A stretch of 58,728 bases of DNA, from the NCBI GenBank assembly GCA_050015075.1, contig JBEKCB010000034.1:1-58728 (forward strand), given 5' to 3'. Shown one piece after another: positions 32,274-50,511 of the stretch. Position 1 is the stretch's first letter; every line of letters starts with the position of its first letter. The stretch is from Candidatus Brocadiia bacterium. Its GTDB lineage: Bacteria; Planctomycetota; Brocadiia; CAIUPP01. The position numbers and the translations under genes were made by a program. The notes beneath the pieces were generated by a model, which had not been told where the DNA came from, made no database searches, and worked only from the letters and a program-made list of their open reading frames with translations.

Positions 32274-32525
32274 TATGGCGTCCCTGTAATAAGTTGCATA
32301 TTGCGCGGTCATTCTGAGCACATTAGCCGCGCCAACGACTGCGCGGCTGGTGCATCAATAGAAAATGCGCGCCGAACGCGCATTTTCTTAGGAGCGAAGC
32401 GAAGAATCTCATACGCTGCTTGTAGTGGCGCCGTAAGGCGCTACGTCGTATGCCCTGACGGGCACACTACGAGCAGCATGACACATGGTGAGCTCACGTA
32501 CGTTATTTGCAGGACATGACAGCAG
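32271..32525. mobile_element. MITE-like element, copy 2 (opposite orientation to copy 1, diverged, with a nested insert)
   Basis: Shares blocks with the reverse complement of copy 1: AGTTGCATA..GGTCATTC.GAGC, GAATCTCATACGCTGC and CATGAC...GTTATTT...GGACA. Begins at the mglC TAG stop. Confidence 0.55.
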
Positions 32526-32551
32526 GGTTTCATTTGCTAAGGGGACGTCGA

Positions 32552-35134: not shown

Positions 35135-35216
35135 GAAGGAAGTTCGGTACACCAACCGCCCATTTCATGCGCACTGCGGCAGGTTCTCGAACGTGACCGA
35201 TCGCAAGGAGCCACAG

Positions 35217-36986
35217 ATGCCGGGCTTGAAGCTGACCACGGAACAGGCCGCCGGACGCAGCATCATCCGAGGACTGCGCCGGACAGCGCTCATGGTGATC
35301 GTGGCAAGCGTGACCGGGTTCAGCGGCTACGCGCCCGCCGCGGACGCGGCCGATTCCAGCGCGGCGGCGAAGGCGTTTACATATAAGACTCCCCAGGGCG
35401 TGACGTTCGTGGTGACGGCCGAGGGGCTGTCGTCCATCCGGTATGCCGATCGCGAGCTCGCCACGGGCGCCTGGCGGGCTGGCAGCGGCGAGGACTGGTT
35501 CCGCTACGGCAACGGCAGGGTCGCCGCCGACAAGATCACCGAAAAGTCCCTGGAGATCCTGGACGGCAATCGCGCCCGCGTGCGCCATGTCATGCAGGAC
35601 ATCACCGCCGATTATAGTTACGTGTTCGACGGTGAAGACGTGACCGTGACCGCCCGCCTGGAGAACGCCAACCCGGCGGAGGAGATGGCCGTCGCCCGCT
35701 TTTACGGCCTGAAATTCGACTTCGGCCGGCCGCCGGCGGGCGTCATGTGCACGCAGCATATCTCGTACTTCCAGTTCCCCGGCCACGGCATTGCCATGTG
35801 CCATCCCAGCGGCTTCTCGAATATCGGCGGCAGCTACGCCGTCAACGAGGCCGTCGGGATCGGCGTCTCGCCCAGCCGGACCGGCCTGGTGCGGACGCTG
35901 ATTCTCTGGGACCACGGCGACTGGGCCCACCAGGAGACCGATCCCTGCCGGAATCTGAACTACTTCGTGGTCGCGCCGACGCCGGCCGCCGGAGCCAGGA
36001 CCTACGAGATGAAGCTCCGCGTCAGTCCCGATCGCGACTGGAAGCACCTGCTCGCCCCGTACAAAGAGCACTTCCAGGGGACGTTCGGGCCGGTGCAGTA
36101 CAAGGCCGACAACCGCTGGGCCGCCTCGTTTTACGCCAACAAGAGCATGCAGGCGGTCAGCGAGAAGAATCCTTACGGCTTCCATGACGGAATGGCGCGG
36201 CTGGACCTGCCCGAAGGAGTCCAGGCCCTGTGCGAGTTCATGCTCAAGCAGTTTCGCGAGGGCGGCGGCCAGGGAATGATCCTTTGGGGCCAGGGCGGCG
36301 AGGAGCCTCGCGGAGGCATGTACCGACCCGACTTCGACATCCTTCCGCCGGAGGTCGAGGCGCAGTGGCCGGCGCTGGCCCGGCAGTTCAAGGAGGCCGG
36401 CGTCCGCCTGGGTGTCACGGCTCGCCCGCGTCATATGGCCGTCCGCGTGAGCTGGAAGTCCGATGGGATCATTGACATCAACGCCGACGACGAAGGCCAC
36501 CGCCAGGTGCTCTGGAATCGTTTCAAGAACATGATCGCCCGCGGTTGCACCCTCTTCTACCTTGACAGCTTCGGCGACTCGCTGGAGGACGTGAAGCTCA
36601 TGCAGTTCCTCCGCCGGCAGATGGGGCCGGACATCCGGACTTTCGCCGAGCACCAGTGCGATGCGATCATGCCGTTCAGCGGCGGCTACAGCGAGACCGA
36701 ACTCAACGGCGACGCGGAGGGCAAAACCGGCAGTTATGCCTTCTGGTCCGGGCTGCGGAACTGGGAGATCTACCGCTGGCTGGCGCCGGGGTCGCAGATG
36801 GTGTCGCGTCTCTTTCGGACCAACAGCAAGGCGCCTGAGAACGTCGAGCCGGCGGAGCGGTTCTGGTTTCGCAACCACATCACGCCGTTGGTCGTCTACG
36901 GCCGGCCGACCGTCTCGGTTGCCGAACTCAAGGCCATGCAGGCCGAGTATGTTGACGATCAGGGACAGTGGAAGGACGGCCCTTAG
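35217..36986 (+). CDS. Secreted hypothetical protein (possible novel glycan-active enzyme)
   Basis: AAGGAG RBS, signal peptide and a long ORF in the operon's orientation; C-terminal LFYLDSFGD..FAEH hints at a TIM barrel. Confidence 0.6.
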   Translation: MPGLKLTTEQAAGRSIIRGLRRTALMVIVASVTGFSGYAPAADAADSSAAAKAFTYKTPQGVTFVVTAEGLSSIRYADRELATGAWRAGSGEDWFRYGNGRVAADKITEKSLEILDGNRARVRHVMQDITADYSYVFDGEDVTVTARLENANPAEEMAVARFYGLKFDFGRPPAGVMCTQHISYFQFPGHGIAMCHPSGFSNIGGSYAVNEAVGIGVSPSRTGLVRTLILWDHGDWAHQETDPCRNLNYFVVAPTPAAGARTYEMKLRVSPDRDWKHLLAPYKEHFQGTFGPVQYKADNRWAASFYANKSMQAVSEKNPYGFHDGMARLDLPEGVQALCEFMLKQFREGGGQGMILWGQGGEEPRGGMYRPDFDILPPEVEAQWPALARQFKEAGVRLGVTARPRHMAVRVSWKSDGIIDINADDEGHRQVLWNRFKNMIARGCTLFYLDSFGDSLEDVKLMQFLRRQMGPDIRTFAEHQCDAIMPFSGGYSETELNGDAEGKTGSYAFWSGLRNWEIYRWLAPGSQMVSRLFRTNSKAPENVEPAERFWFRNHITPLVVYGRPTVSVAELKAMQAEYVDDQGQWKDGP

Positions 36987-37014: not shown

Positions 37015-38085
37015 ATGAAGAGGGTGCGCGTTGGCGTAATCGGATGCGGTGCGATCAGCCCGGCCTATCTGCGCAACATGAAGACCCATTTCTCCGCCGT
37101 GCTCGACGTTGTGGCATGCGCCGACCTGGACCGGGAACTGGCCGCCAAGCGCGCCACGGAGTTCGGCGTGGGGCGCGTGTGCAGCACGGATGAGTTGCTG
37201 GCCGCTTCAGACATCGAACTGGCGATCAATCTCACGCCGTTCCCTGCGCACTACGACGTTTCCATGGCGGTTCTGAAAGCGGGCAAGCATTTGTTCACTG
37301 AAAAGTCGCTGGCGCAGACCCGTGACCAGGGGATGGATATCCTCCAGACGGCAAAGAGCAAAGGACTGCTGATCGGCGCGGCAGCCGACACATTTCTTTC
37401 CGCCGGCCCCCAGGCGTGCCTCCGGGCCATCAACGGCGACGAAATCGGCAAACCCACGGTCGCCAACGGGTTCATCGGCGTGGCAGGGCGCCGCGAGCAC
37501 TACCTCCACGCGTACGGAGGAGCCCTCTTCGATATGGGGCCATATTATCTCACGGCCCTTGTCGCTCTCCTGGGTCCGGTGGTCCGCGTGAGCGGCTCGG
37601 CGCAAAAACCGTTTGAAGAATTGACCGACGCCAAGGAAGGAGGCAAAACTTTCCGAGTGGATCGCCCGACGACGATCGCCGGAGTCCTGGACTTTGCCGG
37701 CGGCTGCGTCGCCGTCTTCACCGCTTCCGGCGACGTGTCGTGCTATCAGCCGCGCGTTGAAATACACGGCGTCAAGGCCTCCCTGCTCATGGGCGATGCG
37801 AACGGCTACAGCGCCGCTTCCCGGATGAGAAAGAGCGACCGCTCCGAGAGCGAACTTCCCATGGGCGATGGCTTCACGGCCGAAGGCCGCGCCCTGGGTA
37901 TTGCGGAAATGGCCGTGGCGATGCGCGCAGGACGCGCGCCTCGTGCCAGCGGCGAGCTGGCCTACCATGTGCTGGACATTATGCATGCCTTGCAGGATGC
38001 GTCGCAGCAGAACCGGCACGTGCGCCTGCGGAGCACATGCGCGCGTCCCACGCCGTTCAACATGGCCGAACTTTCAGGACAATGA
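37015..38085 (+). CDS. Gfo/Idh/MocA-family oxidoreductase
   Basis: VGVIGCGAIS, GKHLFTEKS and GALFDMGPYYLTALV. Confidence 0.85.
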   Translation: MKRVRVGVIGCGAISPAYLRNMKTHFSAVLDVVACADLDRELAAKRATEFGVGRVCSTDELLAASDIELAINLTPFPAHYDVSMAVLKAGKHLFTEKSLAQTRDQGMDILQTAKSKGLLIGAAADTFLSAGPQACLRAINGDEIGKPTVANGFIGVAGRREHYLHAYGGALFDMGPYYLTALVALLGPVVRVSGSAQKPFEELTDAKEGGKTFRVDRPTTIAGVLDFAGGCVAVFTASGDVSCYQPRVEIHGVKASLLMGDANGYSAASRMRKSDRSESELPMGDGFTAEGRALGIAEMAVAMRAGRAPRASGELAYHVLDIMHALQDASQQNRHVRLRSTCARPTPFNMAELSGQ

Positions 38086-38365
38086 CACGGCGGGCGTGTT
38101 CCGGTACATCTCGAATTTCTGCAGAGGCCACCAGAAAAAGCACAATGCCGCGCGGCGTATCTCGTCCTCAAGCACCAAGCCGCTGGCACGGACCACTTTT
38201 TCTCGGCCGCCGCCTGGCCCAAGGCGACGCGTGTTGAGCCGACTATCGCCCGAGCCAGGACTCAGGCTCTGCCCGTCAGGATTAATCCCAACACCACTCG
38301 GCGACAGCGCCGTTTTTGCTGCGCCGGTTCCCGCTCCACGCATTCAAGCCGCGCGGGTTATTATC

Positions 38366-38395
38366 TTGACTTGCTTCGGAAGCACACCCTATAAT
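38366..38395 (+). promoter_or_regulatory. Sigma70 promoter TTGACT-N18-TATAAT for the ubiquitin-system operon, with palindrome TGCTTC-G-GAAGCA in the spacer
   Basis: Read directly; lies about 125 nt upstream of the ATG at 38520. Confidence 0.6.
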
Positions 38396-38519
38396 GCCCG
38401 CGTTGTCGAGGGCTTTGGAGATCACTCTCCGCTGGCGGGCGCTGCGGCGTAGGGCGGGTGGCAATGTTGTAACGTCGCGCGTTCCAGTATGCGGTTCGCA
38501 CCCATTTGAAGGGGCAGCC

Positions 38520-39590
38520 ATGTCCTTCGCGGTCAAATGTCAGTGCGGCAAAGTGTTCAACGTCAAGGACGAATTCCTGAATCGGCAGGTGGAGTGCCAG
38601 GTGTGCCATGCCGTGTTCACGGCGACTCCGGAAGCGGCCGCGCCGGAACCGCCGGCGGTCAGTTCGCCCTCGTCAAATGCTTCGGCTGCCGCCGCGTCGG
38701 GAAACTTCCCCTGTCCCTTCTGCGCTGAACCGATTCCGAAAGGCTCCGTCTTCTGCCCGCTCTGCGGCGAGTCTTTGGGCGGCAAGCTCACGCCGGAGCA
38801 GGGCGCCCAGTTGCTCGCGGCCGCATCCGCGCAGCTCGACCAGTACGTTCGGAACCCGGAGAACCTGTCGTCGGACGACGCTCTGCGCGGCCGGCTCTTC
38901 TCGACAATGAGCATCGTTCTCGGAATCCTTCTGGCAATCTCCGTCGCTGCGATCGTGGCCGGAGGTTTGATGCACAGAGACAGTGGGATGCCGTTGGTGG
39001 TTTTGGGGATCATCTTCGGGTTAATTTTCATCATCGCTTTTCCAATTTCGTGGGCGAACGACTATCGCGCTTCGCACATCCACGATGCGCAGAAACCCGA
39101 GCAAGCCATGCGGCGGTACTTCCTCTCCTGCCGCTCCGGCCGGCACCTGAAAGCTTTTGCGTGCCTGGCGCCCTCCGCGCGCAACGGCTCATCGGCGCAC
39201 GCGCCGAAGTTTGAGAAGATCCCGTCTGAGTCGCCCGATTGCAAGATCACGGACTGGTCGAGCTTTCGGGAATACTGCCGGACGATTTTCAAGGGGCCGG
39301 GCGGCTATCAGCGGGCCGTTTACCTGAAGAAGGTCAAGGTCGAAAAGCAACTTCCCGACGGAACGGCGTGGGTCACGGCCGAATTCCAGTTCACCAGTTT
39401 CTCCAAGTGGCTGTACCTGCTCATCCTGATCAACCTCCTCGTCTGCGCGGTCGTCGTTGCCGTGGTGACGAAGCGTGAAAAGAAGACCATACGAAAGTGC
39501 CTTTTCCGGCGCGGCGACCGATGGTACGTGGCGGAGGCGGATTTCGAAGGCGCTCTGGACAAGGCGGCTCCGGCATTCGCCGAAGCCTAG
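38520..39590 (+). CDS. Zinc-ribbon membrane protein (first gene of the ubiquitin-like operon)
   Basis: CQCG...CQVC, a Pro/Ala/Ser linker, CPFC...CPLC and 3 TM segments. Confidence 0.7.
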   Translation: MSFAVKCQCGKVFNVKDEFLNRQVECQVCHAVFTATPEAAAPEPPAVSSPSSNASAAAASGNFPCPFCAEPIPKGSVFCPLCGESLGGKLTPEQGAQLLAAASAQLDQYVRNPENLSSDDALRGRLFSTMSIVLGILLAISVAAIVAGGLMHRDSGMPLVVLGIIFGLIFIIAFPISWANDYRASHIHDAQKPEQAMRRYFLSCRSGRHLKAFACLAPSARNGSSAHAPKFEKIPSESPDCKITDWSSFREYCRTIFKGPGGYQRAVYLKKVKVEKQLPDGTAWVTAEFQFTSFSKWLYLLILINLLVCAVVVAVVTKREKKTIRKCLFRRGDRWYVAEADFEGALDKAAPAFAEA

Positions 39591-39602
39591 CGAGGGCCCA
39601 AC

Positions 39603-39899
39603 GTGAGCACCGACTCGGATAACATGACGGTCGAAGTATGGGACGCGACGGGCAACAAGAAGACCGTGGCCAGCCTCCCGCGGAACGCGCCGGTGAACCG
39701 CATCCTGGTGCTGCTGATCGAGAAGATGAACCTGCCGCGGCATAGCCCCGACGGGCAACTCATGAGCTACAAGTTCCATCACAAGGCCAGCGGAAAGCAG
39801 TTGCTCGACGAAGCCAGCCTGGAGTCCTCCGGCGTCAAAGAGGGCGATGTGCTGCGCATCCAGCCGGAGATCACCGCCGGTGCCCATGCTGAGAATTGA
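39603..39899 (+). CDS. Ubiquitin-like beta-grasp protein (YukD/EsaB-like) with C-terminal ...PEITAG-AHAEN
   Basis: 98 aa; the Ub-like C-terminal half GKQLLDEASLESSGVKEGDVLRI resembles ubiquitin [23 protein letters not shown]; adjacent to E1, JAB and E2 genes. Confidence 0.8.
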   Translation: MSTDSDNMTVEVWDATGNKKTVASLPRNAPVNRILVLLIEKMNLPRHSPDGQLMSYKFHHKASGKQLLDEASLESSGVKEGDVLRIQPEITAGAHAEN

Positions 39900-41088
39900 T
39901 TCAGGCGAGTCGAAGGAATCCGGCCGGTTCAGCCGCTTTGAACTCATCTCCTGGTGGGACCAGGATCGCCTCCGCAACGCGAGGGTGCTGGTCGTCGGGG
40001 CCGGCGCGCTGGGGAATGAGATCGTCAAGAACTGCAGCTTGCTGGGGATCGGCAATCTCCTCGTGGTGGACATGGACCGCATCGAGCTGTCGAACTTGTC
40101 CAGGTCAGTGCTGTTCCGCGAGTCGGACCGCGGCCGAAGCAAAGCAGAGGTGGCCTGCGAGTCGGCGCGCGCCATTTATCCCGATATCCGCGCCCGACCG
40201 TTCGTGGGGAACATCGTCCACGACCTCGGCCTCGGCGCCTATTTCTGGGCGGACGTGGTCATCGGCGGGCTTGACAACCGCGAGGCTCGCGTCGCCATCA
40301 ACTCCGGCGCGATGTTCGCCGGGAAACCGTGGATTGACGGCGCCATCGAGGCGCTCGACGGCGTGGCGCGGGTATTCCTGCCCGGCGACGGGCCGTGCTA
40401 TGAGTGCACGATGAGCGAGCTGGACTGGAAGCTCCTGCAGGCGCGCCGCTCCTGCGCGCTCCTCACGCGCGACGAAATGCTTGAGGGAAAGGTCCCCACC
40501 ACTCCGACGACGGCCAGCATCATCGCGGGCTTTCAGACGCAGGAGGCCGTCAAAATCCTTCATGGCATGGAGCCGATCGGCGGGCAGGGGTTCGTCTTCT
40601 CGGGCCTCGGCGGCGAGGCATACCTCGTCCGATACACCCGAAAGCCGGACTGCGGCGCGCACGACACGGCGGAGCGCGTGGAGCCGCTGGGCCATGGAGT
40701 CGGCGCGGTGACGGTGGGGGACCTGCTGGAAAGGGCCCGCCGCGATTTGGGCGGGGAGGCGGTGATCGGGCTCAGCCGCGACGTCGTTGCCGCGCTGATC
40801 TGTCCGAAGTGCGATCGCCGCGAAACCCTCTTCCGTTCCCTGGGCCGGGTGACGGAGGCCGAAGCGCTCTGCCCGGACTGCGGCGACCCCCGCGCGCCGG
40901 AGACGATCCTGACCGTCGCGCCCGATTCCGGGTTGAGCGACCGCACCTTCTCGGAAATCGGCCTGCCCGAATTCGACGTGGTCGTTGCCCGGCGCGGCGA
41001 AGCGTCGGTCGCTTATCTTTTCGATGGCGACGCCGAGCGCGTTCTGGGCGAACTGCGCCCCATGGACCTCAAGGAGTCCCCCAGTTGA
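39886..41088 (+). CDS. E1-like ThiF-family adenylyltransferase (ubiquitin-activating enzyme)
   Basis: VVGAGALGNE, DMDRIELSNLSR, GLDNREAR, CYEC...RRSC (putative catalytic Cys), PTT, and an extra C-terminal zinc ribbon CPKC..CPDC. Confidence 0.88.
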   Translation: MLRIDSGESKESGRFSRFELISWWDQDRLRNARVLVVGAGALGNEIVKNCSLLGIGNLLVVDMDRIELSNLSRSVLFRESDRGRSKAEVACESARAIYPDIRARPFVGNIVHDLGLGAYFWADVVIGGLDNREARVAINSGAMFAGKPWIDGAIEALDGVARVFLPGDGPCYECTMSELDWKLLQARRSCALLTRDEMLEGKVPTTPTTASIIAGFQTQEAVKILHGMEPIGGQGFVFSGLGGEAYLVRYTRKPDCGAHDTAERVEPLGHGVGAVTVGDLLERARRDLGGEAVIGLSRDVVAALICPKCDRRETLFRSLGRVTEAEALCPDCGDPRAPETILTVAPDSGLSDRTFSEIGLPEFDVVVARRGEASVAYLFDGDAERVLGELRPMDLKESPS

Positions 41089-42428
41089 CGAAGAACGAGT
41101 CAACCCCCGGCGCGAAGAAGTCCGATTTCGGCCGCATCGAAATGAAGGACCTCAAAGCGGCGAAGTTCCCGGTGAATCTCGCCGGCGAGTACCGCGTCCA
41201 TCTCACCCGGAACGCCGGCGACAAGATGAAAGCCCACGCCGCAACGACCAGCGAAGTTGAACTGTGCGGCGTTCTCGTCGGCGAGATCTGCAAGGACGAC
41301 CTGGGCGCCTTCGTCGAGATCTCCGATGTCATCGAGGGCCGGGCGGCGAACAATTACGGGTCCCAGGTGACGTTCACGCACGAGACGTGGTCGCACATTC
41401 ATTCCGCCATGGACCAGAAGCACCCGGGAAAGCGCATCGTGGGCTGGTATCACACGCATCCCGGGTTCGGCGTGTTCCTTTCCGGCATGGATACGTTCAT
41501 CCAGGAGAACTTCTTCAACGAGCCCTACCAGGTGGCGATCGTCATCGAGACGAAACAGCAGCAACTCGGTTGCTTTGCGTGGAAGAACGGGAAGTCCGTG
41601 CCGCTGAGGCGCCTCTGGATCGGCGACGACGAGGTCCTGCTCCAGACGGGCGAGGCGGAGCCGTTCGACCCTGAAGCTCGGTCGTCGCAGAAGTCCGAGC
41701 GGGAACCGGAGCCGGCCCGGCAAGGCGGCCGGCCGAGCTGGGGCCTCGGCACGCTGCTCGGCATCGCGTGCGGCTGCATGGTCGGGTGGCTCGCCGGCCG
41801 CTACATCTCCGCGGCCGAAGTCCAGCGCGCGGCGATGGATTCCATCCAGTCGGAGGTCTACTCGATACTGGAATACGCCGCCATGAACGTGTCCGCGGGC
41901 AAGGACTTTGAGGACGTTGAAGACCGCCTCGGCAAGATCGAGGGGCTGCTGAAGGACCACAAAGAGAAGGAGGCCCTCGAGGCGCTCCAGGGCTGCGAGA
42001 AAATGATTGCCGGGATCAAGGGCACGTACCAACTGGACCGATCCCGATTCCGGAGCGATATGGCCGACGTGGCCGCGCGGAAGCGCACCCTGGCGCAGAG
42101 CGTCCAGGCGACCGAGCAACGCGAGTCGGTGCTCGAGGAGTACCTTGCAGATCTTTACCTGACAAGGATCAACTCATTTTTCGCTGAAGCCGGAACGACC
42201 GACTTGGCCAAATTCCCGCCGCAGCTCCAGCAGATGGTCAAGATATGCCTCGACCGGTCGCTGACTCTGTGTCCGGAGGCCAAGCCCCAAATCCAGCAGA
42301 TGTATCCCGGCCTCATCGAGTTCTTCTATCCGGAGCCGAAGCCGCCAGCGGGTGCCGCGGAGGGAAAGCCTGGCGCTGAAAAGGCGCCGCGAGGGAAGAC
42401 AAGCACAACGCCGGAGGCCGCGCGATGA
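41085..42428 (+). CDS. JAB/MPN+ (Mov34) metalloprotease with a TM anchor and helical C-terminal domain
   Basis: ELCGVLVG and JAMM motif GWYHTHPGFGVFLSGMD; TM GLGTLLGIACGCMVGWLAG. TTG start overlaps the E1 TGA, with an AAGGAG RBS. Confidence 0.85.
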   Translation: MTKNESTPGAKKSDFGRIEMKDLKAAKFPVNLAGEYRVHLTRNAGDKMKAHAATTSEVELCGVLVGEICKDDLGAFVEISDVIEGRAANNYGSQVTFTHETWSHIHSAMDQKHPGKRIVGWYHTHPGFGVFLSGMDTFIQENFFNEPYQVAIVIETKQQQLGCFAWKNGKSVPLRRLWIGDDEVLLQTGEAEPFDPEARSSQKSEREPEPARQGGRPSWGLGTLLGIACGCMVGWLAGRYISAAEVQRAAMDSIQSEVYSILEYAAMNVSAGKDFEDVEDRLGKIEGLLKDHKEKEALEALQGCEKMIAGIKGTYQLDRSRFRSDMADVAARKRTLAQSVQATEQRESVLEEYLADLYLTRINSFFAEAGTTDLAKFPPQLQQMVKICLDRSLTLCPEAKPQIQQMYPGLIEFFYPEPKPPAGAAEGKPGAEKAPRGKTSTTPEAAR

Positions 42429-42465
42429 CGACGGACCCCGGCACGATAGTCCGTGAGGGCAGAAC

Positions 42466-43527
42466 ATGGCTGACGTGACGATCACCCGCGAGGAACTGAA
42501 CGACCCGAAGATTGACGAGGTGATTAACCTCGAGAAATCGCTCGCGCAAACCGGGGGACAATTCATCGAGGACGTGAAGACGCCGTTCTATCTGAACCCG
42601 GTCGTCTACTACGCCACGGCCTGCGTGCTCGGGGCGTTCTCGGCGTGGTGCGTTTTCGAGCCGTTCTACAACGAGGGGCCGGGCCCGGGGATTCCCTTCG
42701 TCAGCGACTATCTCCTGTTCGGTTTGGCGGCGGCGCTCATGGGGTTGGCCATGGGCGTGATATACGGCGCGGCAAACCACAACGGGCGGGACTGCTTCTA
42801 CTGTGGCGCCGTCGGCGTCGGCGTGGGGCTCCTTGCAACGATCGTGACAACGCTCCTGGCGGACCTCTGTTTCGGCGTCCTCTCACATATCGCCCTCGCG
42901 ATATCCGGCCGGAAAGGCTATGTCCGCTTTGCCGACCTGCGGGGCGGGGCATTCTTTCTGGCCATGTGCGGGCGGGCGCTCGCCTGGGCGATCGTCAGCG
43001 CGGGCGCCGGGCTCGGCCTGGGCGTCGCCTTGAAGTCCAAGAAACTGATCTTGAACGGACTGGCCGGCGGGCTGGTAGGCGGCACGCTCGGCGGATTGCT
43101 CTTCGACCCGATCGGACGGTGGCTGCTCAGCGCGCAAAGCAGCGCCGCCGCGAGCCGCGCGGTCGGAATGACGGCCATCGGGCTGCTCGTCGGGCTCTTT
43201 GTCGGGTTGTTCGAGAATATTTCCAAGGACTCCTGGTTCCTGATGCTCAAAGGCCCGCTGGCGGGCAAACAGTTCAGCATCTTCAAGAGCCCGATGACCA
43301 TCGGCTCGGCCCCCAAGCGCAACATCTACCTCTTCAAGGACGCCGAGATAGACCCTCTGCACGCAAGCGTCATCAAATCCGGCAACCGGTACATGCTTCA
43401 AGATGAGGGCAGCAAGAGCGGGACGTTTGTAAACGGGCGCCGGGTGGACAAGTACGTCCTTCGCCCGGGTGACGTCGTCACGATCGGCCAGACGGTCCTG
43501 AAGTATCATGAGAAACAGAAATCGTAA
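42466..43527 (+). CDS. Multi-TM membrane protein with a C-terminal FHA domain
   Basis: About 7 Gly-rich TM segments, then TIGS...H...LQDEGSKSGTFVNG...LRPGDVVTIG. Confidence 0.8.
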   Translation: MADVTITREELNDPKIDEVINLEKSLAQTGGQFIEDVKTPFYLNPVVYYATACVLGAFSAWCVFEPFYNEGPGPGIPFVSDYLLFGLAAALMGLAMGVIYGAANHNGRDCFYCGAVGVGVGLLATIVTTLLADLCFGVLSHIALAISGRKGYVRFADLRGGAFFLAMCGRALAWAIVSAGAGLGLGVALKSKKLILNGLAGGLVGGTLGGLLFDPIGRWLLSAQSSAAASRAVGMTAIGLLVGLFVGLFENISKDSWFLMLKGPLAGKQFSIFKSPMTIGSAPKRNIYLFKDAEIDPLHASVIKSGNRYMLQDEGSKSGTFVNGRRVDKYVLRPGDVVTIGQTVLKYHEKQKS

Positions 43528-43550
43528 GGCCTGACGCCGGGAGACTCGGC

Positions 43551-44357
43551 TTGGGAGAAGGGACCACTAAAGGGACGACGCAGGTCTGCCCGAACTGCGG
43601 TGCCAGGCTGGCGGTCACGCCCGAGTTGCTCGGGCGGAAGTGCCGGTGCGCCCAATGCATGAAGGTATTCATCGCCGGCGAAGAGGCGCCGGCGCAAGCC
43701 GCGTCGGCGCAGCCGATGCCGGGTCCTTCCGTGGAAGCGCCTCCGGCGCGGCCGGCGGCTGCTGCAACTCCGCCGCCCGCGGCGGCGTCCGCCGCGCCCA
43801 TCTCGCCCGCCGACGATCTTCCGGAGTTCATGAAGGCGAACCGCAGGATCGCTCAACGCGCCTGCTCGAGGTGCGGCGCGCAGCTTGAATTGGGCGACGA
43901 TGTCTTCAACTGTCGCGCTTGCGGTTCCAGTATGCATCAGGCCTGTCACACCGCCGTCGGCGGCTGCGCGAATCCCTCCTGTCCGCAAACGAAAGTCGGC
44001 GGCGAACTTTCACTGGTGTCCGCACCGCCCGTGGAGAGTCCTCCGGCCGCGCCCATGGCCGCCGACGAGACACCCTGCCGGTTCTGCGGCGAGCGGATCA
44101 AGGTCGGCGCCCGGAAGTGCCGATTCTGCAATGAATTCCAGTCGGAAGCCGACCGCGGGAAAGCCCAAGGAAGGACTCCCTCGGACGAGAAGCTCAACGC
44201 TTGGGAAATCCTCCTGGGCATCCTGTGCGCCGGCATCGGCTGTATCGTGGGCATTGTCTATATCGTTCAGGGCAAGAAGAAGGGCTGGAAGCTGTTGTTG
44301 CTTTCGATCATCATGTGGATTATCTTTTACATCATCAGGGCGGCGGCTAAGCGGTAG
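43551..44357 (+). CDS. Zinc ribbon + prokaryotic RING finger + zinc ribbon + 2 TM (putative E3)
   Basis: CPNC..CAQC; RING C-x2-C-x12-C-x2-C-x4-H-x2-C-x6-C-x4-C at 43863-43982; CRFC..CRFC; start uncertain. Confidence 0.75.
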   Translation: MGEGTTKGTTQVCPNCGARLAVTPELLGRKCRCAQCMKVFIAGEEAPAQAASAQPMPGPSVEAPPARPAAAATPPPAAASAAPISPADDLPEFMKANRRIAQRACSRCGAQLELGDDVFNCRACGSSMHQACHTAVGGCANPSCPQTKVGGELSLVSAPPVESPPAAPMAADETPCRFCGERIKVGARKCRFCNEFQSEADRGKAQGRTPSDEKLNAWEILLGILCAGIGCIVGIVYIVQGKKKGWKLLLLSIIMWIIFYIIRAAAKR

Positions 44358-44392
44358 CTGGTCCCGGCCTGAAGGTGCGCCGGAGAGAATCC

Positions 44393-45007
44393 ATGGCCGA
44401 GGCTGACGCGAAGTCCGACATCCATGTGCTTGCGGCGGAGTCTTCGACGGCGGGCAAGATGTGCTCGATTTGCCAAAGCCAGATCATCATGGGCGAGCGC
44501 ATCCTGAAGTGTCCGTCGTGCACGCTGCCGTTTCATAAGGACTGCTGGATCGAGAACGGCGGTTGCGCGCAGTACGGTTGCAAAAGCGCCCCGCAAACGG
44601 CGAAGTCCGAACCGGCCTCGGGCTTGGCGAGCAACGTCTGGGGCGAAGAGAAGCCCTGTCCATCGTGCAGGAAACTGATCCGCGCTCAGGCGGTCAAGTG
44701 CCGGTTCTGCGGTGCGAGCTTCGGGACGTCCGAGATCCTCTCGGCCGACCAGTATGCCAGCCGGGAGTACGAGGGACAGGAGCACCTGCGAGTGCGGAAC
44801 AAAGTCATTGGCCTGTTCCTCGCGTCCCTCACGGGCTTCCTCTCGCCCATAACGGTCATCCTGTTCGCGCTGCTCGTTTTCGGCAAGCGCTTTTACGGTA
44901 TTGAGTACCGGCGTCTGCCTCAGGCCATCCGCGCGTTGGCCTGGATCGGCTTGGGGATCAGCGGCCTGTTCGTTTTGCTCCTCGTCCTGTTCGTGGCTTT
45001 CGATTGA
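44393..45007 (+). CDS. Prokaryotic RING finger + zinc ribbon + 2 TM (putative E3)
   Basis: CSICQSQIIMGERILKCPSCTLPFHKDCWIENGGCAQYGC at 44462-44581; CPSC..CRFC; GGAG RBS. Confidence 0.8.
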   Translation: MAEADAKSDIHVLAAESSTAGKMCSICQSQIIMGERILKCPSCTLPFHKDCWIENGGCAQYGCKSAPQTAKSEPASGLASNVWGEEKPCPSCRKLIRAQAVKCRFCGASFGTSEILSADQYASREYEGQEHLRVRNKVIGLFLASLTGFLSPITVILFALLVFGKRFYGIEYRRLPQAIRALAWIGLGISGLFVLLLVLFVAFD

Positions 45008-45018
45008 ATCGGCGGGTT

Positions 45019-46332
45019 ATGGCTGAAACACCTGAAGCGATGGTCGCGAGCAGCTTTCAGGCCGGCAACACGTGCCCGGCATGCCAGCGGCTCATCGAGG
45101 AGAATCAGCGGATCATCCGGTGCGACCAGTGCGGCGGACTGCACCACGAGTTGTGCTGGCAGGTGCAGGCCGGATGCTCGTCGTACCATTGCGATAAGCG
45201 GGCGCGTGCGGACTTCGGCCGGCTCCAGGCCGATCTCGTGATCAGCGCCTCCGACGCCGAGCGTGTGGTGGTGCCGCCAATGCCGCCGCGTGCGCGGACC
45301 GAGGAGCTGGCGCGGATGTACCTCCCTGAAGAGCCGAAGCGCCTCAGCAGGCTGGCGGTCGCAGCCTCGGTCCTGGCCGTTCTGAGTGCGATGACCGTGT
45401 GGGGTGTGGCCGCTGAGACTTGGCCGCTCGCCGTGTGCGGGTTCGCGCTGGCCCTGATCGCCCTCGTCACGGGCATCATCGGCCTCGTGGTCATTTACAC
45501 GGGCGGGAGGGCCAAGGGACTGAAGCTTGCCGGGACCGCGCTCGGCTTCACCGCCGCGGTGATGCTCGTCTCGGTGGGCATCCTCGCGCTGCGGGAAAGG
45601 GGGTCGCGCGGAGACTCCGCCGCGGTCCTTGACTTCTCCAACAGCGCGCCGAGCGAGGAGACGCTCAGCCGTCTTGATCCGATCAAGGCCAACGCGCTGC
45701 GGGCGAACGTCGTCGTCCGGGCGCAAGGCGGCGGATGGCTCTCCAGCGCGACGCTCTTCGGCTCGGGGACCATCTTGAGGGTCGTCGGCCAGCGGGCGTT
45801 TATCCTCACCAACCGCCATGCGATCGAGCACGAGGGCGCCATTTTGAAACGTATCGAGGTTCTGTTCCACAACGGCGAGCGGAGCGGGGCCGTCGTGGAG
45901 TGGCTGGCCCCGGGCGGAATGGACATCGCCATCCTCTCGTGCCAGGCGCTCACGCTGACGGGAATTGAACCGGCGAAGCTCGCCTCGGACCTTGCGGCGC
46001 AGAGCGAGCGCGTCTTTGTCATCGGGAACCCTCTGAACCTCTCCTGGAGCTACAGTGAAGGGGTGATTTGCGCCACGCGCTCCCAGAACACGGGAGACCG
46101 CGCGATTTCCGTGTACCAGACCCAGGCGCCGACCCGTCCCGGCAGCAGCGGAGGCGGATTGTACGACATGAGCGGCACCCTGCTGGGGGTGAACACGTGG
46201 ACGGAAAACACCACGACCGGCGAGGGCATGTCGTTCGCCATCTCCACGAAGAGCATCTTGGAAGCGCTGCCGGCAGAGGCCGCCGCCCGCTTCCTGCAGC
46301 AGGGCGCCGAGGCGCCGCAAGGGGCGCAGTAA
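45019..46332 (+). CDS. Prokaryotic RING finger + 3 TM + trypsin-like serine protease
   Basis: RING at 45073-45192; catalytic triad LTNRH, MDIAIL and PGSSGG. Alternative TTG start at 45004 overlaps the previous stop. Confidence 0.85.
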   Translation: MAETPEAMVASSFQAGNTCPACQRLIEENQRIIRCDQCGGLHHELCWQVQAGCSSYHCDKRARADFGRLQADLVISASDAERVVVPPMPPRARTEELARMYLPEEPKRLSRLAVAASVLAVLSAMTVWGVAAETWPLAVCGFALALIALVTGIIGLVVIYTGGRAKGLKLAGTALGFTAAVMLVSVGILALRERGSRGDSAAVLDFSNSAPSEETLSRLDPIKANALRANVVVRAQGGGWLSSATLFGSGTILRVVGQRAFILTNRHAIEHEGAILKRIEVLFHNGERSGAVVEWLAPGGMDIAILSCQALTLTGIEPAKLASDLAAQSERVFVIGNPLNLSWSYSEGVICATRSQNTGDRAISVYQTQAPTRPGSSGGGLYDMSGTLLGVNTWTENTTTGEGMSFAISTKSILEALPAEAAARFLQQGAEAPQGAQ

Positions 46333-47249
46333 TGAGCACCATGCGACTTCGCCGACTGAAGGCTGACTACGACAAGATCTGCACGATGTTCAGCGGCAAG
46401 TCGCCCATCCGCGTCAAAGAGGCCCGTGGCACGCCGCCGGAGAAATACCAGATCGAGTTCCTCGTGACGAGCCTGCAGCAAGACCCGATGACGCACGCAC
46501 TCCGCAGCCACAACTGCTTTATCGCCGAGATCACGCTCACGGCGGCGTACCCGCGTATGGCGCCGCAATGCCGGATGATCACACCTGCTTTCCATCCCAA
46601 TATCGCTCCGCACGCCATCTGCATCGGCGACCACTGGGCTGCGGGCGAATCGCTCCCGTTTCTCATTGTGCGTATCGCCGAGATGGTCGCGTTTCAATCG
46701 TACAATGTCAAGAGCCCGCTCAACGGCGAGGCCGCCCGCTGGGTCGAAGCGAACAAAGCCAGCGTCCCGACCGACACGCGTGACTTCTCCGCGCTGCTTT
46801 CCGTCGGCGAGGCCGTCGCCCGCAGCCGGGACGGCGCCGTAGTGACCAGCTCCGAATGCGCTAACTGCGGAAAGCCCGCCGGCGCGGCGCCGATGAAAGT
46901 CTGCGTCAACCAGCACACCACGTGCGACGACTGCGCGCTGGAGTGTGCGGTCTGCAAGAGCGTGCTCTGCCTGAAATGTCCTCAGGAGCGTTGCGCGCTC
47001 TGCGGCGCCACGGCTTGCCACCGCTGCCTGGTGCGGTGCAACTGCTGCAACCGGATCGCCTGCTCAAAGCACGCCGGTCCATGCCACGTCTGTGGGCTGG
47101 GAACCTGCGCGGAATGCCTCGTCCGCTGCGACGCGTGCGGGCGGCTCGCCTGCGTCCAGCACATCACCAAAGCGCTGGTTGACGGCGGGAGGAAATACCA
47201 TTGCACGGCATGCACCGGCCAGGCCCAACAGCCGCACGCGCTCTCCTGA
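46332..47249 (+). CDS. E2 ubiquitin-conjugating (UBC) enzyme with a C-terminal multi-zinc-finger tail
   Basis: RLRRLKADY, YPRMAP, FHPNIAPHAIC (catalytic Cys), W, and SPLNGEAA; 14 Cys/His ligand pairs follow; TAATG overlap with the protease stop. Confidence 0.88.
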   Translation: MSTMRLRRLKADYDKICTMFSGKSPIRVKEARGTPPEKYQIEFLVTSLQQDPMTHALRSHNCFIAEITLTAAYPRMAPQCRMITPAFHPNIAPHAICIGDHWAAGESLPFLIVRIAEMVAFQSYNVKSPLNGEAARWVEANKASVPTDTRDFSALLSVGEAVARSRDGAVVTSSECANCGKPAGAAPMKVCVNQHTTCDDCALECAVCKSVLCLKCPQERCALCGATACHRCLVRCNCCNRIACSKHAGPCHVCGLGTCAECLVRCDACGRLACVQHITKALVDGGRKYHCTACTGQAQQPHALS

Positions 47250-47782
47250 CCGCCGAGGTTGAATGGGCGTCAGGCCAGGCGGCGTCAGCCCATACGTCCG
47301 CAGAGGCGACTGCGGCCAGGCGCGCCTACGGTTTTCTTCTGCCCCCCGAAGCGGATCTGGCCTGCGACGCGCGCACAAACTGGACCTACCTGCTCATCCT
47401 GCTGGCCTTTCTGATCCTGCCGTTCGTGGTCCGGTTCGAGCCGAAGGTGAGTGCCTCTCCGACACTCTTCGGTTTCAACCTTCCGTCCATGTGTCCCTGC
47501 CGCGAGATTTTCGGAGTGAATTGCCCCGGCTGTGGGCTGACTCGTTCCTTTGTACTGCTCGCGCACGGACATATCGGCGAGTCGCTGCGGTACCACCGGC
47601 TGGGGATTGTGCTCTATGGGGTCTTCGGTTGGCAGGCGATCTTCCGCATCTGCTGCATCGCGCGGCGGTCACGGCCGATCCCGCATTCCTTACTCACTTT
47701 GCAACGGGTGGTTCCGGCAGTCGTGATCGTTCTATTGATCGTGAACTGGGCGGTGAATCTGCTCCCGCTGCCATATCTGTGA
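47201..47782 (+). CDS. DUF2752-family small membrane protein (true start unresolved)
   Basis: CPCREIFGVNCPGCGLTRSF..LAHG signature with flanking TM helices. Confidence 0.7.
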   Translation: MHGMHRPGPTAARALLTAEVEWASGQAASAHTSAEATAARRAYGFLLPPEADLACDARTNWTYLLILLAFLILPFVVRFEPKVSASPTLFGFNLPSMCPCREIFGVNCPGCGLTRSFVLLAHGHIGESLRYHRLGIVLYGVFGWQAIFRICCIARRSRPIPHSLLTLQRVVPAVVIVLLIVNWAVNLLPLPYL

Positions 47783-47813
47783 AAGGGACTTGCGGCCACG
47801 CGAGTCCCTTTTT
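47782..47813 (+). terminator. Intrinsic terminator closing the ubiquitin-like operon
   Basis: AAAGGGACTTGCG-GCCA-CGCGAGTCCCTTT followed by TT: 13-bp stem with one G-U pair, immediately after the stop. Confidence 0.75.
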
Positions 47814-47955
47814 CATTGGCCGAAAACGCCTCTTGTACAGTACTTTGTACAGTGCGGGCCTCCGGCCGAGCGCTCGCCCGGATTTTCAAGAGGGCGCTGT
47901 CAGGTCCGCGAGCGCTTCCCGCCGCGCTATCTCTTCGCCGCCGCGCGCCGCTCGT

Positions 47956-48897
47956 TCACTCCGTTCTGGCCGGCGACCGGAACTGCCGCCCGACCAGTAT
48001 GCAGTACGGTGTGAAGCCCAGCTTGAGGTAGCTGGCGTGCGCGGCGGCATTCCAGAGCTGCGTTCCGACCGACACGACCCGGCAGCCGAGCCCATGACCC
48101 TGCCGCATCGCGCGCGAGACCAACGCCGCGGCGATACCCTGGCGGCGGCAGTCTTCCCGCGTGCTCAGCGCAAAGATGTTCATGGCCGGCGAGCCGAGGC
48201 GATCGAGGTGCGGCAGCACCACCCAGGCGATGCTGCCGACGATCTCTCCGTTGATCTTCGCGCGGGCCGCCCTGGGCTCGAAACCGCTCCAGGATTCGTG
48301 CATCGGCTCGTGATTCGTTCCGGCTGCGTCCTCTTCAAACTCAACGGCGATCCGCGCCGGCGCTTCCTCGGGCGCGTCCTGCATCCGCGCGACCATGAAG
48401 ATGGATTCCTGGGTGTTCTTGAACCCGGCCACTTCCAGAACGAGGTGAACGTGCGGAAGGGAGACCGGACACATCGGCTCTCCGCCGAACCACAGACCGC
48501 GATAGAACGGATAGCCGGCGTACGGGTGCATCGCCTCCATCTCCTGAAACCCGGCGCGCCGAAGCCAGGCGGCAGCTTCCTGCACCAGCGCGGCGCCTAT
48601 GCGCAGGCTCTCGCGCGGGAAGATCAGCATCCGGATCCGCGCCACCTTCGCGTTCAGGTCGTTCCACGGTTCGGTTCCGGGCGTAACGCAGGCATGAACC
48701 CAGCCAAGGACGCGCCCGGCGCGCACCGCAATGAAAAGGCCCGCCGGATCAAAGTAGGATTTCTTCTCGACCAACTGGATGAACCGCTCCGCCGTCAGCG
48801 GCGCGATATGCGGCTCGAACGCGGTCTCGTCGTTATAGACGCGCGCCATTCCTTCCAGGAACTGCCGGTCATAGGTCTCGATGGAGAAGTCCGCCAA
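47956..48897 (-). CDS. GNAT-family acetyltransferase (tandem GNAT)
   Basis: TREDCRRQGIAAALV..NAAAHASYLKLGF; an N-terminal degenerate GNAT domain. Confidence 0.75.
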   Translation of the reverse strand: MADFSIETYDRQFLEGMARVYNDETAFEPHIAPLTAERFIQLVEKKSYFDPAGLFIAVRAGRVLGWVHACVTPGTEPWNDLNAKVARIRMLIFPRESLRIGAALVQEAAAWLRRAGFQEMEAMHPYAGYPFYRGLWFGGEPMCPVSLPHVHLVLEVAGFKNTQESIFMVARMQDAPEEAPARIAVEFEEDAAGTNHEPMHESWSGFEPRAARAKINGEIVGSIAWVVLPHLDRLGSPAMNIFALSTREDCRRQGIAAALVSRAMRQGHGLGCRVVSVGTQLWNAAAHASYLKLGFTPYCILVGRQFRSPARTE

Positions 48898-48910: not shown

Positions 48911-50479
48911 TTACATGTCTGCGGGCCGCCCCAGGCGCATGGGCAGTCCCATCATCGAATACATCGAACGCGTCGGATGCAACCCGCGCGTGGACGCCCT
49001 GACGAACACCTGCGCACAGAAGGGGCCGTCGCCCTGCGCATGAGCGGCAAACGGCCGGCCAACGGGCAATCCGTCGAACTCGGATGCGCTGACGCACCGG
49101 ACGCCCTGCGGAGCGATCTCCACTTCGCGCGAGAGCCGCCGGCCGCCGCCCAATCCATAGGCCGAGAGCACCACCCGCACCGGCCGTTTCGCCGGGTTGA
49201 ACAGGTGATAGGCCTGCGACCATTCGGCGGGGACATCATCCGCGCCGCCCGCCTGGCCGATGCCCAACCAATATTCACATTCATTCTTCAGCGGGCCCGG
49301 GTACAGATTGACGCCGGACATGGCGCCCGGGCAACAGCGGCTGAACATCTCGAACTCCGCGCCCGTCACATCGGGGATTACCGGGTGATCCGCCCGCACG
49401 GTCAGCGCAAAAGGCTGGTTGATCGAGGTGTGTTGGCCGAGCCATGGCGGCCTGTGAAGCCACTGGCATACCGACTGCTGCGGCGGAACGGTGTACGGCG
49501 CCGATTCGCTCGTCCGGCCGTCCGGCCCGTGGAAGCTGAGCGTGACGCGAGCGTCGCGGCTGACGTGGGGGTTGTGGACAAAGAGCAAGTTCCAGGTCAG
49601 ATCGCTGCTCTCCCAGACCCTGTCGCCAGCCTTGGCGCGCGGGAGAACACCCCGTTCGAGAATAGCGCCGCCCGGGTAATACCAGAGCTTCGAAAGGCGG
49701 CGCCGCACCGGATAACCTATAACACTGCGCGTGCCGATGACCGGCGTCCATCCGCGCCATCGCGCGCGCCGCGTGAGCTGAGGAATGACCGGCCCGGTGG
49801 CGTTGAGCCGGATAACATAGTCGCCCTCGATCTTCATCACCGGTTCGCGATCCGTCCCCGTAAGCTGTGGGCTGCGTTCCCACAGGTTCATCTGCTTGAC
49901 CCGGCATGCCGGGACGACGACCGTTTCCTCCGCGCCTCGGGCCCGTCCGCGCGGAAAGTAGCGCACGCGGACGCTGACCTCTGCGTTCCCGGGATTCAGG
50001 ATCGAAAGCGTCTCGATCTCGTACCAACTCGGATCCTTTCCCTGGTAACAGTCCGGGAAAACCCAGCTTGTCTCATCGTGCAAGGGACCCGGGTACGGAG
50101 CGACCGCGACCAGGGCGTCCGGCACTTCCTCCCAGAACGTGAAATCCTGGTGCAGCGCCTGGGGCAGCACCGGGACGTTCGACTGAAGCGCTATCCAGAA
50201 GGACTGCTTGTGAGGCACCTCCGGCAATGCGGCCAGTTCCAGCGCGCCGATCGCCGAAGGTTCGACCGTCATGGCGACTTCGCTGGGCGGCCGGTCCACG
50301 TGGTAGAACCGCACCTGCACGCGGGCTTTCTTCCGTTGGGGGTTGTAGACGAACAACCCGGAGGAGCATTCCCGCGGCCTGCCGGAAGCGGCGCGATGCT
50401 CGGCCGGCTGATCGTCCCAGATGAATCCGTCCCCGACGAACCAGTGCTTGCCGCCCCTGCCGTATTGAGTCTCTGCCAT
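48911..50479 (-). CDS. Protein with four tandem Anabaena sensory rhodopsin transducer (ASRT/DUF1362)-like domains
   Basis: Four repeats of W..G...(L/I)xNP...V...V.P...F......P(V/F): HWFVGDG..VYNP, SWVFPD..ETLSILNP, LWYYPGG..VHNP and YWLGIG..LFNP. Confidence 0.65.
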   Translation of the reverse strand: MAETQYGRGGKHWFVGDGFIWDDQPAEHRAASGRPRECSSGLFVYNPQRKKARVQVRFYHVDRPPSEVAMTVEPSAIGALELAALPEVPHKQSFWIALQSNVPVLPQALHQDFTFWEEVPDALVAVAPYPGPLHDETSWVFPDCYQGKDPSWYEIETLSILNPGNAEVSVRVRYFPRGRARGAEETVVVPACRVKQMNLWERSPQLTGTDREPVMKIEGDYVIRLNATGPVIPQLTRRARWRGWTPVIGTRSVIGYPVRRRLSKLWYYPGGAILERGVLPRAKAGDRVWESSDLTWNLLFVHNPHVSRDARVTLSFHGPDGRTSESAPYTVPPQQSVCQWLHRPPWLGQHTSINQPFALTVRADHPVIPDVTGAEFEMFSRCCPGAMSGVNLYPGPLKNECEYWLGIGQAGGADDVPAEWSQAYHLFNPAKRPVRVVLSAYGLGGGRRLSREVEIAPQGVRCVSASEFDGLPVGRPFAAHAQGDGPFCAQVFVRASTRGLHPTRSMYSMMGLPMRLGRPADM

Positions 50480-50511
50480 GGCGTTCTCCCGAGGGAAGCC
50501 TCCTCGGAAAG

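Follow-up and report, generated by a model that had tools for sequence, protein, structure and literature searches.

Prokaryotic operons that encode a ubiquitin-like modifier (Ubl), an activating enzyme (E1), a conjugating enzyme (E2), a JAB peptidase and RING fingers were reportedly predicted by Burroughs, Iyer and Aravind (Mol Biosyst 2011), in work that is also said to be the source of the Pfam family Prok-RING_1. The component set of this class, a YukD-like Ubl, an E1, a UBC-like E2, a JAB peptidase and RING fingers with transmembrane (TM) helices in one neighbourhood, is the set found in the stretch of DNA analyzed here. This stretch (the window) is 58,728 nt of contig JBEKCB010000034.1 from a Candidatus Brocadiia bacterium, a planctomycete. 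Ten tightly packed genes (g1 to g10) lie on its + strand at 38366-47818, flanked by a promoter-like site on the 5' side and by a strong terminator hairpin on the 3' side. Their products are a Ubl, a ThiF-type E1, a UBC-type E2, a JAB peptidase, three Prok-RING_1 proteins, a zinc-ribbon protein, a TM-FHA protein and a DUF2752 protein.

By its gene content, the operon is a member of the class predicted by comparative genomics in 2011, which agreed with the earlier note on this DNA. The class features present here are a beta-grasp modifier with a C-terminal Gly, an E1, an E2 with HPN...C, an intact JAMM site and linked RINGs with eight ligands. The TM-FHA gene, the RING-protease fusion, DUF2752, g1 and the Cys-rich tail of the E2 may already have been described in the 2011 work. 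From what is known of these families, and from the catalytic and zinc-binding residues conserved in all orthologues compared, a true E1-E2-RING conjugation cascade is very probable. That it forms a self-contained Ubl conjugation cascade at the cytoplasmic membrane is likely, a statement that concerns the machinery and not its biological role.

Later papers cite the 2011 prediction for such operons (PMC7159879, PMC3417536, PMC5654768, PMC11601603). A 2024 preprint gives the functions of the remaining operon families as unknown (PMC11601603). Our searches of the full-text literature returned no experiments on Ubl operons of bacteria that include a RING. In bacteria, E1/E2 conjugation has been proven only for the RING-less systems CBASS (cyclic oligonucleotide-based antiphage signaling system), Bil and Bub, and the only source from which a full E1/E2/RING cascade has been reconstituted is an uncultured archaeon.

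This cascade is encoded by the ubiquitin operon of Caldiarchaeum subterraneum (ubiquitin, E1, E2, a small RING finger protein and Rpn11), which was reconstituted in vitro (PMC5654768, PMC6043591); one of the papers also mentions some complete operons of bacteria (PMC5654768). In the archaeon, a JAMM peptidase takes the tail off the pro-modifier, E1 and E2 are encoded separately, and a RING ligase (E3) stimulates the E2; the same steps would be expected of the window system. The archaeal components are soluble, with one RING, whereas in the window the three RINGs and the JAB have TM segments and four further membrane genes are present. The archaeal modifier is a close homologue of ubiquitin ending in GG, whereas that of the window is YukD-like, ends in AG and had no solved relative detectable by sequence search.

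Bil (BilABCD), Bub and type II CBASS (Cap2/Cap3) contain bacterial homologues of E1, E2, Ubl and JAB that carry out real conjugation, according to PMC11601603 and PMC11354881. All three lack a RING E3, their modifier is either ISG15-like or built of several domains, and in Cap2 the E2 and E1 are fused. The BilB E2 has a CEHH motif (PMC11354881), whereas the window E2 has the canonical HPN...C. The window modifier was a single beta-grasp of 91 aa in the structure model, neither it nor the E2 matched any PADLOC model, the match to BilD was partial and weak (2.3e-5), and the flanks are of the housekeeping type. These features keep the locus apart from Bil and Bub, as had been assumed. It differs from type II CBASS in that E1 and E2 are encoded by two genes at a distance of 5 kb and that no CD-NTase family was found among the ten genes.

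The modifier gene g2 (39624-39899, + strand; alternative GTG start at 39603) encodes a precursor of 91 aa, which matched Pfam YukD (3e-8). Its C-terminus is composed of EITAG, in which the Gly is Gly86, and a five-residue tail (AHAEN), and the mature end is predicted to be at Gly86. When the sequence was aligned with those from 12 orthologous loci, an AG followed by a variable tail was present in 13 of 13 (EITAG in 12, and FVAG in L049, a compact cluster described below). The tails ranged from none to more than 20 unconserved residues, and two of the sequences stopped exactly at AG. Such an end is characteristic of a modifier that is made conjugatable by processing, in which a peptidase would expose the Gly.

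Identity of the Ubl among the 13 sequences was 32-79%. Across taxonomic families it was 55-80%, versus 25-57% for the operon neighbours. The structure model of the Ubl (pLDDT, the predicted local confidence, of 85.8) was a beta-grasp. Its best folds in the PDB were ubiquitin and NEDD8 (TM-score 0.82-0.85), and also SUMO (whole range 0.76-0.85, normalized by target).

The putative E1 (g3, 400 aa; 39886-41088, + strand) matched ThiF (8e-51) and carries CYEC and RRSC motifs. It consists of an adenylation domain, C171-x2-C174, C190 (in RRSC) and a C-terminal region of approximately 130 aa with a CPKC...CPDC zinc ribbon; in Pfam, residues 270-400 gave weak zinc-ribbon matches only. The CxxC and Cys190 were present in 13 of 13 sequences, and its position makes Cys190 a candidate for the catalytic residue. 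The nearest solved sequences were UBA7 (1.4e-30), Uba1 (1.3e-26) and UBA3 (3.5e-22), followed by MoeB (8e-21) and ThiF (8e-18).

The JAB/JAMM peptidase (g4; 41142-42428, + strand; alternative TTG start at 41085) matched JAB (1.3e-11) and also Prok-JAB. The JAMM residues E40, H104-x-H106, S114 and D117 were invariant in the 13 sequences. They are followed by one TM segment at approximately 201-219 and a poorly conserved helical C-terminal region. By a crude hydropathy scan, a single TM segment was present in 11 of the 13 sequences, two segments in L034 and none in L049, which is of type B.

The nearest solved relatives of g4 were CSN5 (1e-9), the Rpn11-like protein 6fju (2.3e-9), which we take to be the Caldiarchaeum enzyme, and Rpn11 (range 1e-9 to 7e-9). 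Because the nearest solved relatives are eukaryotic or archaeal enzymes of the ubiquitin system, the E1, the E2 and the JAB look like members of the ubiquitin-system branches of their superfamilies, and not like sulfur-transfer or known defence enzymes.

The putative E2 (g9; 46332-47249, + strand) has a UBC core (residues 1-160; UQ_con 7e-8) with H88-P89-N90 and C97. The HPN and C97 were invariant in all 17 operon-linked E2s. An E2 profile searched against the PDB found UBE2C (6e-12). The structure model (pLDDT 84.7) had a UBC core like those of Ubc13 and UbcH5 (TM-score 0.68-0.70 by target).

The core is followed by a Cys-rich tail of approximately 140 residues (about 165-305; window 46824-47246), which is built of CxxC-x4-C repeat units and was modelled as stacked beta-hairpins (about 165-295; pLDDT about 80-95). 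The tail is kept in the closer orthologues and missing in others. It matched no Pfam family, and its sole solved match was a 40-residue stretch of the TRIM23 RING (1.8e-4), which is probably in part compositional.

All three RING genes are on the + strand. The product of g6 (43551-44357) consists of an N-terminal zinc ribbon, a Prok-RING_1 domain of the C4HC3 type (37.8 bits, over the cut-off), a second zinc ribbon and two TM segments. That of g7 (44393-45007) has a Prok-RING_1 domain (over the cut-off in the genome search), a second zinc ribbon and two TM segments. The g8 product (45019-46332; alternative TTG start at 45004) has a Prok-RING_1 domain, three TM segments and an HtrA-like serine protease (Trypsin_2 5e-20); its RING scored 29.0 bits in hmmscan (cut-off 29.1) and 33.1 bits in the genome search. 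In this search of the organism's own 4.64-Mb assembly, the only Prok-RING_1 domains were those of g6, g7 and g8, all over the curated cut-off.

The eight RING ligands of g7 (C24, C27, C40, C43, H48, C51, C58 and C63) were invariant in 15 of 15 sequences, and g6 and g8 had the same spacing (C-x2-C-x11-C-x2-C-x4-H-x2-C-x6-C-x4-C). g6 and g7 are paralogous (2e-12). Since g6, g7 and g8 each have their own orthologues, the triplication of the RINGs appears to be old. With these proteins, the full Ubl/E1/E2/RING/JAB set claimed in the earlier note was recovered as Pfam families with catalytic residues conserved in orthologues. The individual features it had listed (CYEC and RRSC of the E1, the JAMM protease, HPN and Cys of the E2, three RINGs, the DUF2752 protein and the zinc-ribbon protein) were also present; the HtrA-like domain of g8 and the Cys-rich tail of the E2 had been missed.

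A complex of the E2 core (residues 1-160) with the g7 RING (residues 18-82) was modelled, using our own alignments, and scored 0.74; the best of three controls scored 0.11. Of 80 solved complexes, 58 reached a score of this level, as did 2 of 110 mismatched pairs. The runs agreed in at least 83% of contacts, and the partner pLDDT was at least 79. The interface in the model was formed by E2 residues 2-12 (helix 1), 74-76 and 101-107, which faced the two zinc loops and the RING centre. Helix 1 of an E2 together with these loops is the canonical E2-RING surface.

The model supports binding of the g7 RING to the E2. The good score may reflect likeness to solved complexes, because E2-RING is a textbook pair that is abundant among solved structures.

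The protease triad of g8 (H267, D302, S377) was present in 14 of 14 sequences. No PDZ domain was detected in g8, and its HtrA and DegS rows in NCBIfam were all far below the cut-offs. By these cut-offs, the protease is HtrA-like and not a member of the HtrA/DegP family. In the orthologues, mostly three TM segments separate the RING from the protease (crude scan). Since the number of TM helices is odd, the two domains would lie on opposite sides of the membrane, with the protease facing the periplasm and the RING in the cytoplasm. The presence of both in one polypeptide suggested that g8 probably links tagging on the inner side of the membrane to an event on the outer side.

The distribution of the system was surveyed in 401 genomes of Planctomycetota from 288 genera, among which related genomes are not independent samples. 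The E2 was matched in 56 of the 401 genomes (43 of the 288 genera), the Ubl in 48 and Prok-RING_1 in 67, versus none of 14 control genomes for the latter. E2 and Ubl co-occurred in 45 genomes, E2 and RING in 49, and all three in 44. The E2 matches clustered by taxonomic family (e.g. 10 of 11 genomes in f24).

Twenty loci, the best-scoring of 62 E2 places listed and mostly on long contigs, were fetched, and their open frames were assigned to the ten queries by tblastn and phmmer. The g2-g9 core was found in the order of the window in 10 of the 20 (L031, L032, L034, L036-L040, L042 and L044), and all ten genes in three (L031, L032 and L034). Co-conservation of the genes, which had been anticipated, was thus borne out by these loci and by the 44 genomes with E2, Ubl and RING. 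Of the remaining loci, L035, L041 and L050 were cut by contig ends, and L045 was reduced (g2-g5, g7 and g9).

Some of the fetched loci departed from this arrangement. In L033 (G328:C3:44900-63700), only the last 63 residues of g5 are followed by g6-g10, and no Ubl, and no E1 at E<=1e-20, was found in its genome (88% complete, 6 contigs); L033 may be a decaying copy. The system is split in G285:C2, where Ubl and E1 lie at 31441-32903 and E2 and DUF2752 (L043) approximately 297 kb away on the same contig. L049 (G276:C84) is a compact E1-Ubl-E2-JAB cluster of a form differing from the window operon, in which tblastn with g6-g8 found no RING.

Three others (L046, L047 and L048, in G357, G043 and G239 of family f6, genus g53) are lone E2-like genes, 29-34% identical to the query. 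Their products keep the HPN and have His or Tyr replacing the catalytic Cys, like inactive E2s of the ubiquitin E2 variant (UEV) kind. No other operon gene was found within approximately 18 kb of them, and there was no Ubl match in these genomes.

In a further group of genomes, Prok-RING_1 was expanded and dispersed. At least 16 scored matches each were found in G021, G054, G079, G126, G214, G230, G246, G261, G276, G291, G306, G336 and G362, and the numbers were also high in G181 (15) and G198 (13). These genomes are mostly large (5-10 Mb), with 55-137 first-look candidates in open reading frames (ORFs) of up to approximately 1900 aa. A distant E2 (29-39% identical) was present in 14 of the 15, in G276 as part of the L049 cluster. 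The pattern looks like one E1/E2 serving many E3s.

These data may be put together in the following scheme. The modifier would be made as a precursor, the variable tail of which is cut by JAB (g4) after EITAG (Gly86). The E1 (g3) would adenylate the exposed Gly and then form a thioester with it on Cys190, from which the Ubl would be handed to Cys97 of the soluble E2 (g9). The membrane C4HC3 RING proteins (g6, g7 and g8) would dock the charged E2 at the membrane and promote transfer to lysines nearby, and the same JAB could remove the tag. The likeliest targets would be the membrane partners in the operon (g5, g1, g10 or the RING proteins themselves) or other envelope proteins.

Being compact, complete and well conserved, the locus offers clear experimental handles, namely the predicted processing site after Gly86, the candidate catalytic cysteines (E1 Cys190 and E2 Cys97) and soluble RING and JAB domains suited to separate expression. 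It could show whether bacteria had E3 catalysis of the RING type before eukaryotes arose, what role a ubiquitin-like tag plays in the absence of a detected proteasome gene, and how a membrane ligase couples to a periplasmic protease.

One of the membrane partners, g5 (42466-43527, + strand), has a polytopic Gly-rich membrane module with five to seven hydrophobic segments and a C-terminal FHA domain (FHA 1.2e-14, Yop-YscD_cpl 1.7e-15). In canonical FHA domains, phosphothreonine is bound by the Arg of GR, the Ser of SxxH and the Asn of NG. On alignment with GarA, GR was replaced by GS, VSRRHA by IDPLHA and NGT by SGT in g5, and just the His and the fold-defining Gly were kept. The consensus of 82 homologues was also non-canonical (IGSSP...P.HA...GT.VNG). 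Because the residues of the phosphothreonine pocket are missing and the score was slightly better on the phospho-independent YscD-type profile than on FHA, the domain is more likely a protein-protein module than a phospho-reader. The FHA protein of the earlier note is thus present as a fold, and as a cue for signalling it is weakened.

The g5 family had 226 representatives at E<=1e-30. The alignment and a survey of fusions covered the 82 proteins of at least 400 aa out of 150 listed homologues. Fusions to JAB were found in two, to Prok-RING_1 in one and to VWA in five. The JAB and Prok-RING_1 fusions appear to tie the membrane module of g5 to Ubl machinery independently of gene order. Fusions to UQ_con+FHA and to FHA+Trypsin_2, which had been suggested by Atlas, were not recovered; none of the 82 long homologues had UQ_con or Trypsin_2 in the HMMER survey. 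A search for longer, fused homologues of g5 returned one uninformative FHA protein.

The earlier note had placed TM segments in seven of the ten products. A home-made, crude Kyte-Doolittle hydropathy scan agreed, with TM-like segments in g1, g4, g5, g6, g7, g8 and g10 and none in the Ubl, E1 or E2. Tagging of membrane or envelope proteins was favoured because seven of the products are membrane proteins, conservation of the Ubl far exceeds that of its partners, and the neighbourhoods are of the housekeeping type. That the system acts on such proteins, in a housekeeping or regulatory function rather than in defence, is possible, though we would put it at somewhat less than even.

A wider picture may be drawn by analogy. 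Hrd1 and Doa10/MARCH6 are multi-spanning E3s of endoplasmic reticulum-associated degradation (ERAD), the cytosolic RINGs of which bring in a soluble E2, so that proteins of the membrane or the lumen are tagged. The window RINGs share the C4HC3 ligand pattern with the RING E3s of ERAD and RING-CH ligases; this is an analogy only, and the homology shown does not extend beyond the RING. A Cdc48 or proteasome partner was not identified for the window system, and we know of no ERAD counterpart for a ligase of the g8 type, fused to a periplasm-facing serine protease.

On this analogy, planctomycetes might possess a membrane-embedded ubiquitylation network, in which RING ligases write and JAMM erases, and which controls turnover, sorting or complex assembly of membrane proteins. 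The g8 protease would let envelope events set the tagging, and in other planctomycetes one E1/E2 would serve many E3s. We regard this picture as tentative and rather doubtful.

Several points weigh against a membrane conjugation cascade with a housekeeping role. The complex model was made for a pair of families of which many complexes have been solved. The modifier terminus is Ala-Gly, not Gly-Gly, and members of the YukD family are known to act non-covalently in type VII secretion. The TM counts and the sidedness rest on a crude hydropathy scan, and the basic C-terminal tail of g1 (7 K/R) is at odds with a simple topology of three TM segments with the N-terminus inside, under the positive-inside rule. 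No substrate, reader or degradation machine is identifiable, and the Proteasome family was not found in the organism's own genome, which is 93.6% complete and does not prove absence. None of the 20 listed genomes of the same class (families f2 and f3; 93-100% complete) matched the E2, Ubl or RING family. Such a patchy distribution fits a mobile or conflict system as well as loss.

The last point leads to the alternative that survives best, a conflict or defence system. The operon would be an anti-phage or selfish element for 'protein-level restriction-modification', which puts the Ubl onto invader or self proteins, with JAB reversing the reaction and the protease as effector. The patchy spread (56 of 401 genomes in the phylum and none of the 20 in the class) is in its favour, as are the protease fused to one of the RINGs (g8) and the five VWA fusions among the 82 longer members of the g5 family. 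Such operons are described by Aravind and colleagues as mobile, and proposed as selfish elements, in PMC3417536, and Bil and CBASS demonstrate that bacterial E1/E2 systems can act in defence, as reported in PMC11601603. Tri-ligase Ubl systems are part of the vWA-MoxR 'FtsH ternary' conflict systems (Kaur et al. 2020, PMC7159879). The latter have a Ubl fused to E2 and to an EAD1 adaptor, caspase-like effectors and vWA-MoxR/FtsH genes, whereas none of these is in the window operon.

The neighbourhood spoke against a conflict system. The window flanks encode an ABC transporter, an alpha-galactosidase, a CN-hydrolase, a GFO/IDH/MocA oxidoreductase, a GNAT protein and an ASRT-domain protein; these are of the housekeeping type and do not form a defence island. 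In nine orthologous loci, ten large ORFs in the flanks encoded cytochrome c, Ig/PKD, TPR, phosphodiesterase or DnaG proteins or had no family; they were mutually unrelated, and no defence genes were among them. No mobile-element genes were seen in the flanks examined.

In PADLOC, g6-g8 had no conjugation-related match (g6 gave a weak Cas12f zinc-ribbon row at 9.6e-5 and g8 weak protease-domain rows). The E1 and JAB gave weak matches to generic models only, in which the 'E1-E2' rows covered the adenylation domain only. The level of Ubl identity across families (55-80%, versus 25-57% for its neighbours) sets it apart from fast-evolving defence genes, and the matches cluster by taxonomic family. 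A defence role, which the earlier note had listed among its options, thus found no support in the neighbourhood, and we consider a conflict system unlikely.

A second alternative is that the Ubl is not conjugated and is a YukD-like non-covalent assembly factor for a membrane complex, with the E1, E2 and RING homologues in structural or other roles. The assignment of g2 to YukD by Pfam and the seven membrane products are consistent with this, and T7SSb (type VII secretion) assembly is controlled non-covalently by YukD according to PMC12637312. On the other hand, the C-terminal Gly is conserved while the tails vary, the E1/E2 catalytic Cys and the JAMM site are intact in all orthologues, and the Ubl model is closest to ubiquitin and NEDD8. 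The g2 product matches the YukD profile, whereas the other nine genes match no type VII secretion family, and the EccD row (E 0.04) for the operon was far below the cut-off. A non-covalent factor therefore appears highly improbable.

The weakest alternative, a sulfur carrier of the ThiS/MoaD-ThiF/MoeB type with the C-terminus of the Ubl thiocarboxylated for cofactor or metabolite synthesis, draws on the E1 being of the ThiF/MoeB superfamily with ThiF and MoeB as its best NCBIfam rows (all far below the cut-offs), but may be practically dismissed, as the E1 is nearer to UBA7/Uba1 than to MoeB/ThiF, the E2, three RINGs and JAB are present and co-conserved, and no rhodanese domain, sulfurtransferase or biosynthetic gene was found in or next to the operon.

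The conjugation cascade is thus preferred, and its patchy distribution may be read in two ways. Because none of the 20 genomes of the same class matched and the best relatives are in other classes, the lineage would either have gained the operon by transfer or its relatives would have lost it. The nearest named relative was a groundwater Planctomycetota metagenome-assembled genome.

The operon had been described as ten co-oriented genes between one promoter and one terminator. The co-orientation and the terminator were confirmed, and the promoter remained suggestive only. The promoter-like site (TTGACT-18-TATAAT; 38366-38395, + strand) agrees with the consensus at 11 of 12 positions and was the sole match of its kind in a 10.5-kb scan (37800-48300), in which 1.2 matches were expected by chance. 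The intrinsic terminator (47781-47818, + strand), directly 3' of the g10 stop codon, consists of a 14-bp G+C-rich hairpin and a U-run. Its folding energy was -40.9 kcal/mol (z = -5.6), which was equalled by none of 200 shuffles. The hairpin was found by folding and was absent from the output of a consensus terminator scan.

The start/stop overlaps reported before were also seen, namely 14 nt at g2/g3, TAATG at g8/g9 and approximately 40 nt at g9/g10. Further overlaps may exist at g3/g4 and g7/g8, if the TTG starts are in use. The remaining intergenic gaps were 12-37 nt.

The first gene, g1 (+ strand), had been given an ATG at 38394. Because this ATG sits within the -10 box, the translation start was placed at 38520, which is probably correct (g1 at 38520-39590). 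The product has two N-terminal zinc ribbons (weak Pfam matches), a TM hairpin, a domain of approximately 110 aa, a third hydrophobic segment and the basic tail. Its orthologues were at the 5' end of the operon in L031, L032 and L034 and elsewhere in L041 and L042. A BLASTP match between g1 and g6 (1e-4 over 93 residues) was also observed. The two have a common layout of zinc ribbon-linker-zinc ribbon-TM hairpin, with g1 lacking the RING ligands, and g1 may be a RING-less relative of g6. An Atlas lead for g1, an NTF2/SnoaL-like fold, was rejected with a match below the bar.

The last gene, g10 (47210-47782, + strand; alternative start at 47201), encodes a DUF2752 membrane protein (1.8e-17) with a conserved CPGCG motif. 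It adjoins the E2 in L031-L035, L043 and L044, and is inside the operon in L038.

None of 24 listed public runs was on record as RNA. The operon sequence was present at a word share of at least 0.5 in 16 of them, all labelled peat metagenome; seven of the 16 may be the source of the assembly.

Two neighbours of the operon, neither of them linked to it in other genomes, were noted in addition. The upstream one (35193-36986, + strand; 597 aa) matched no Pfam family. The downstream one (48911-50554, - strand) contained two stretches of the ASRT (Anabaena sensory rhodopsin transducer) domain.

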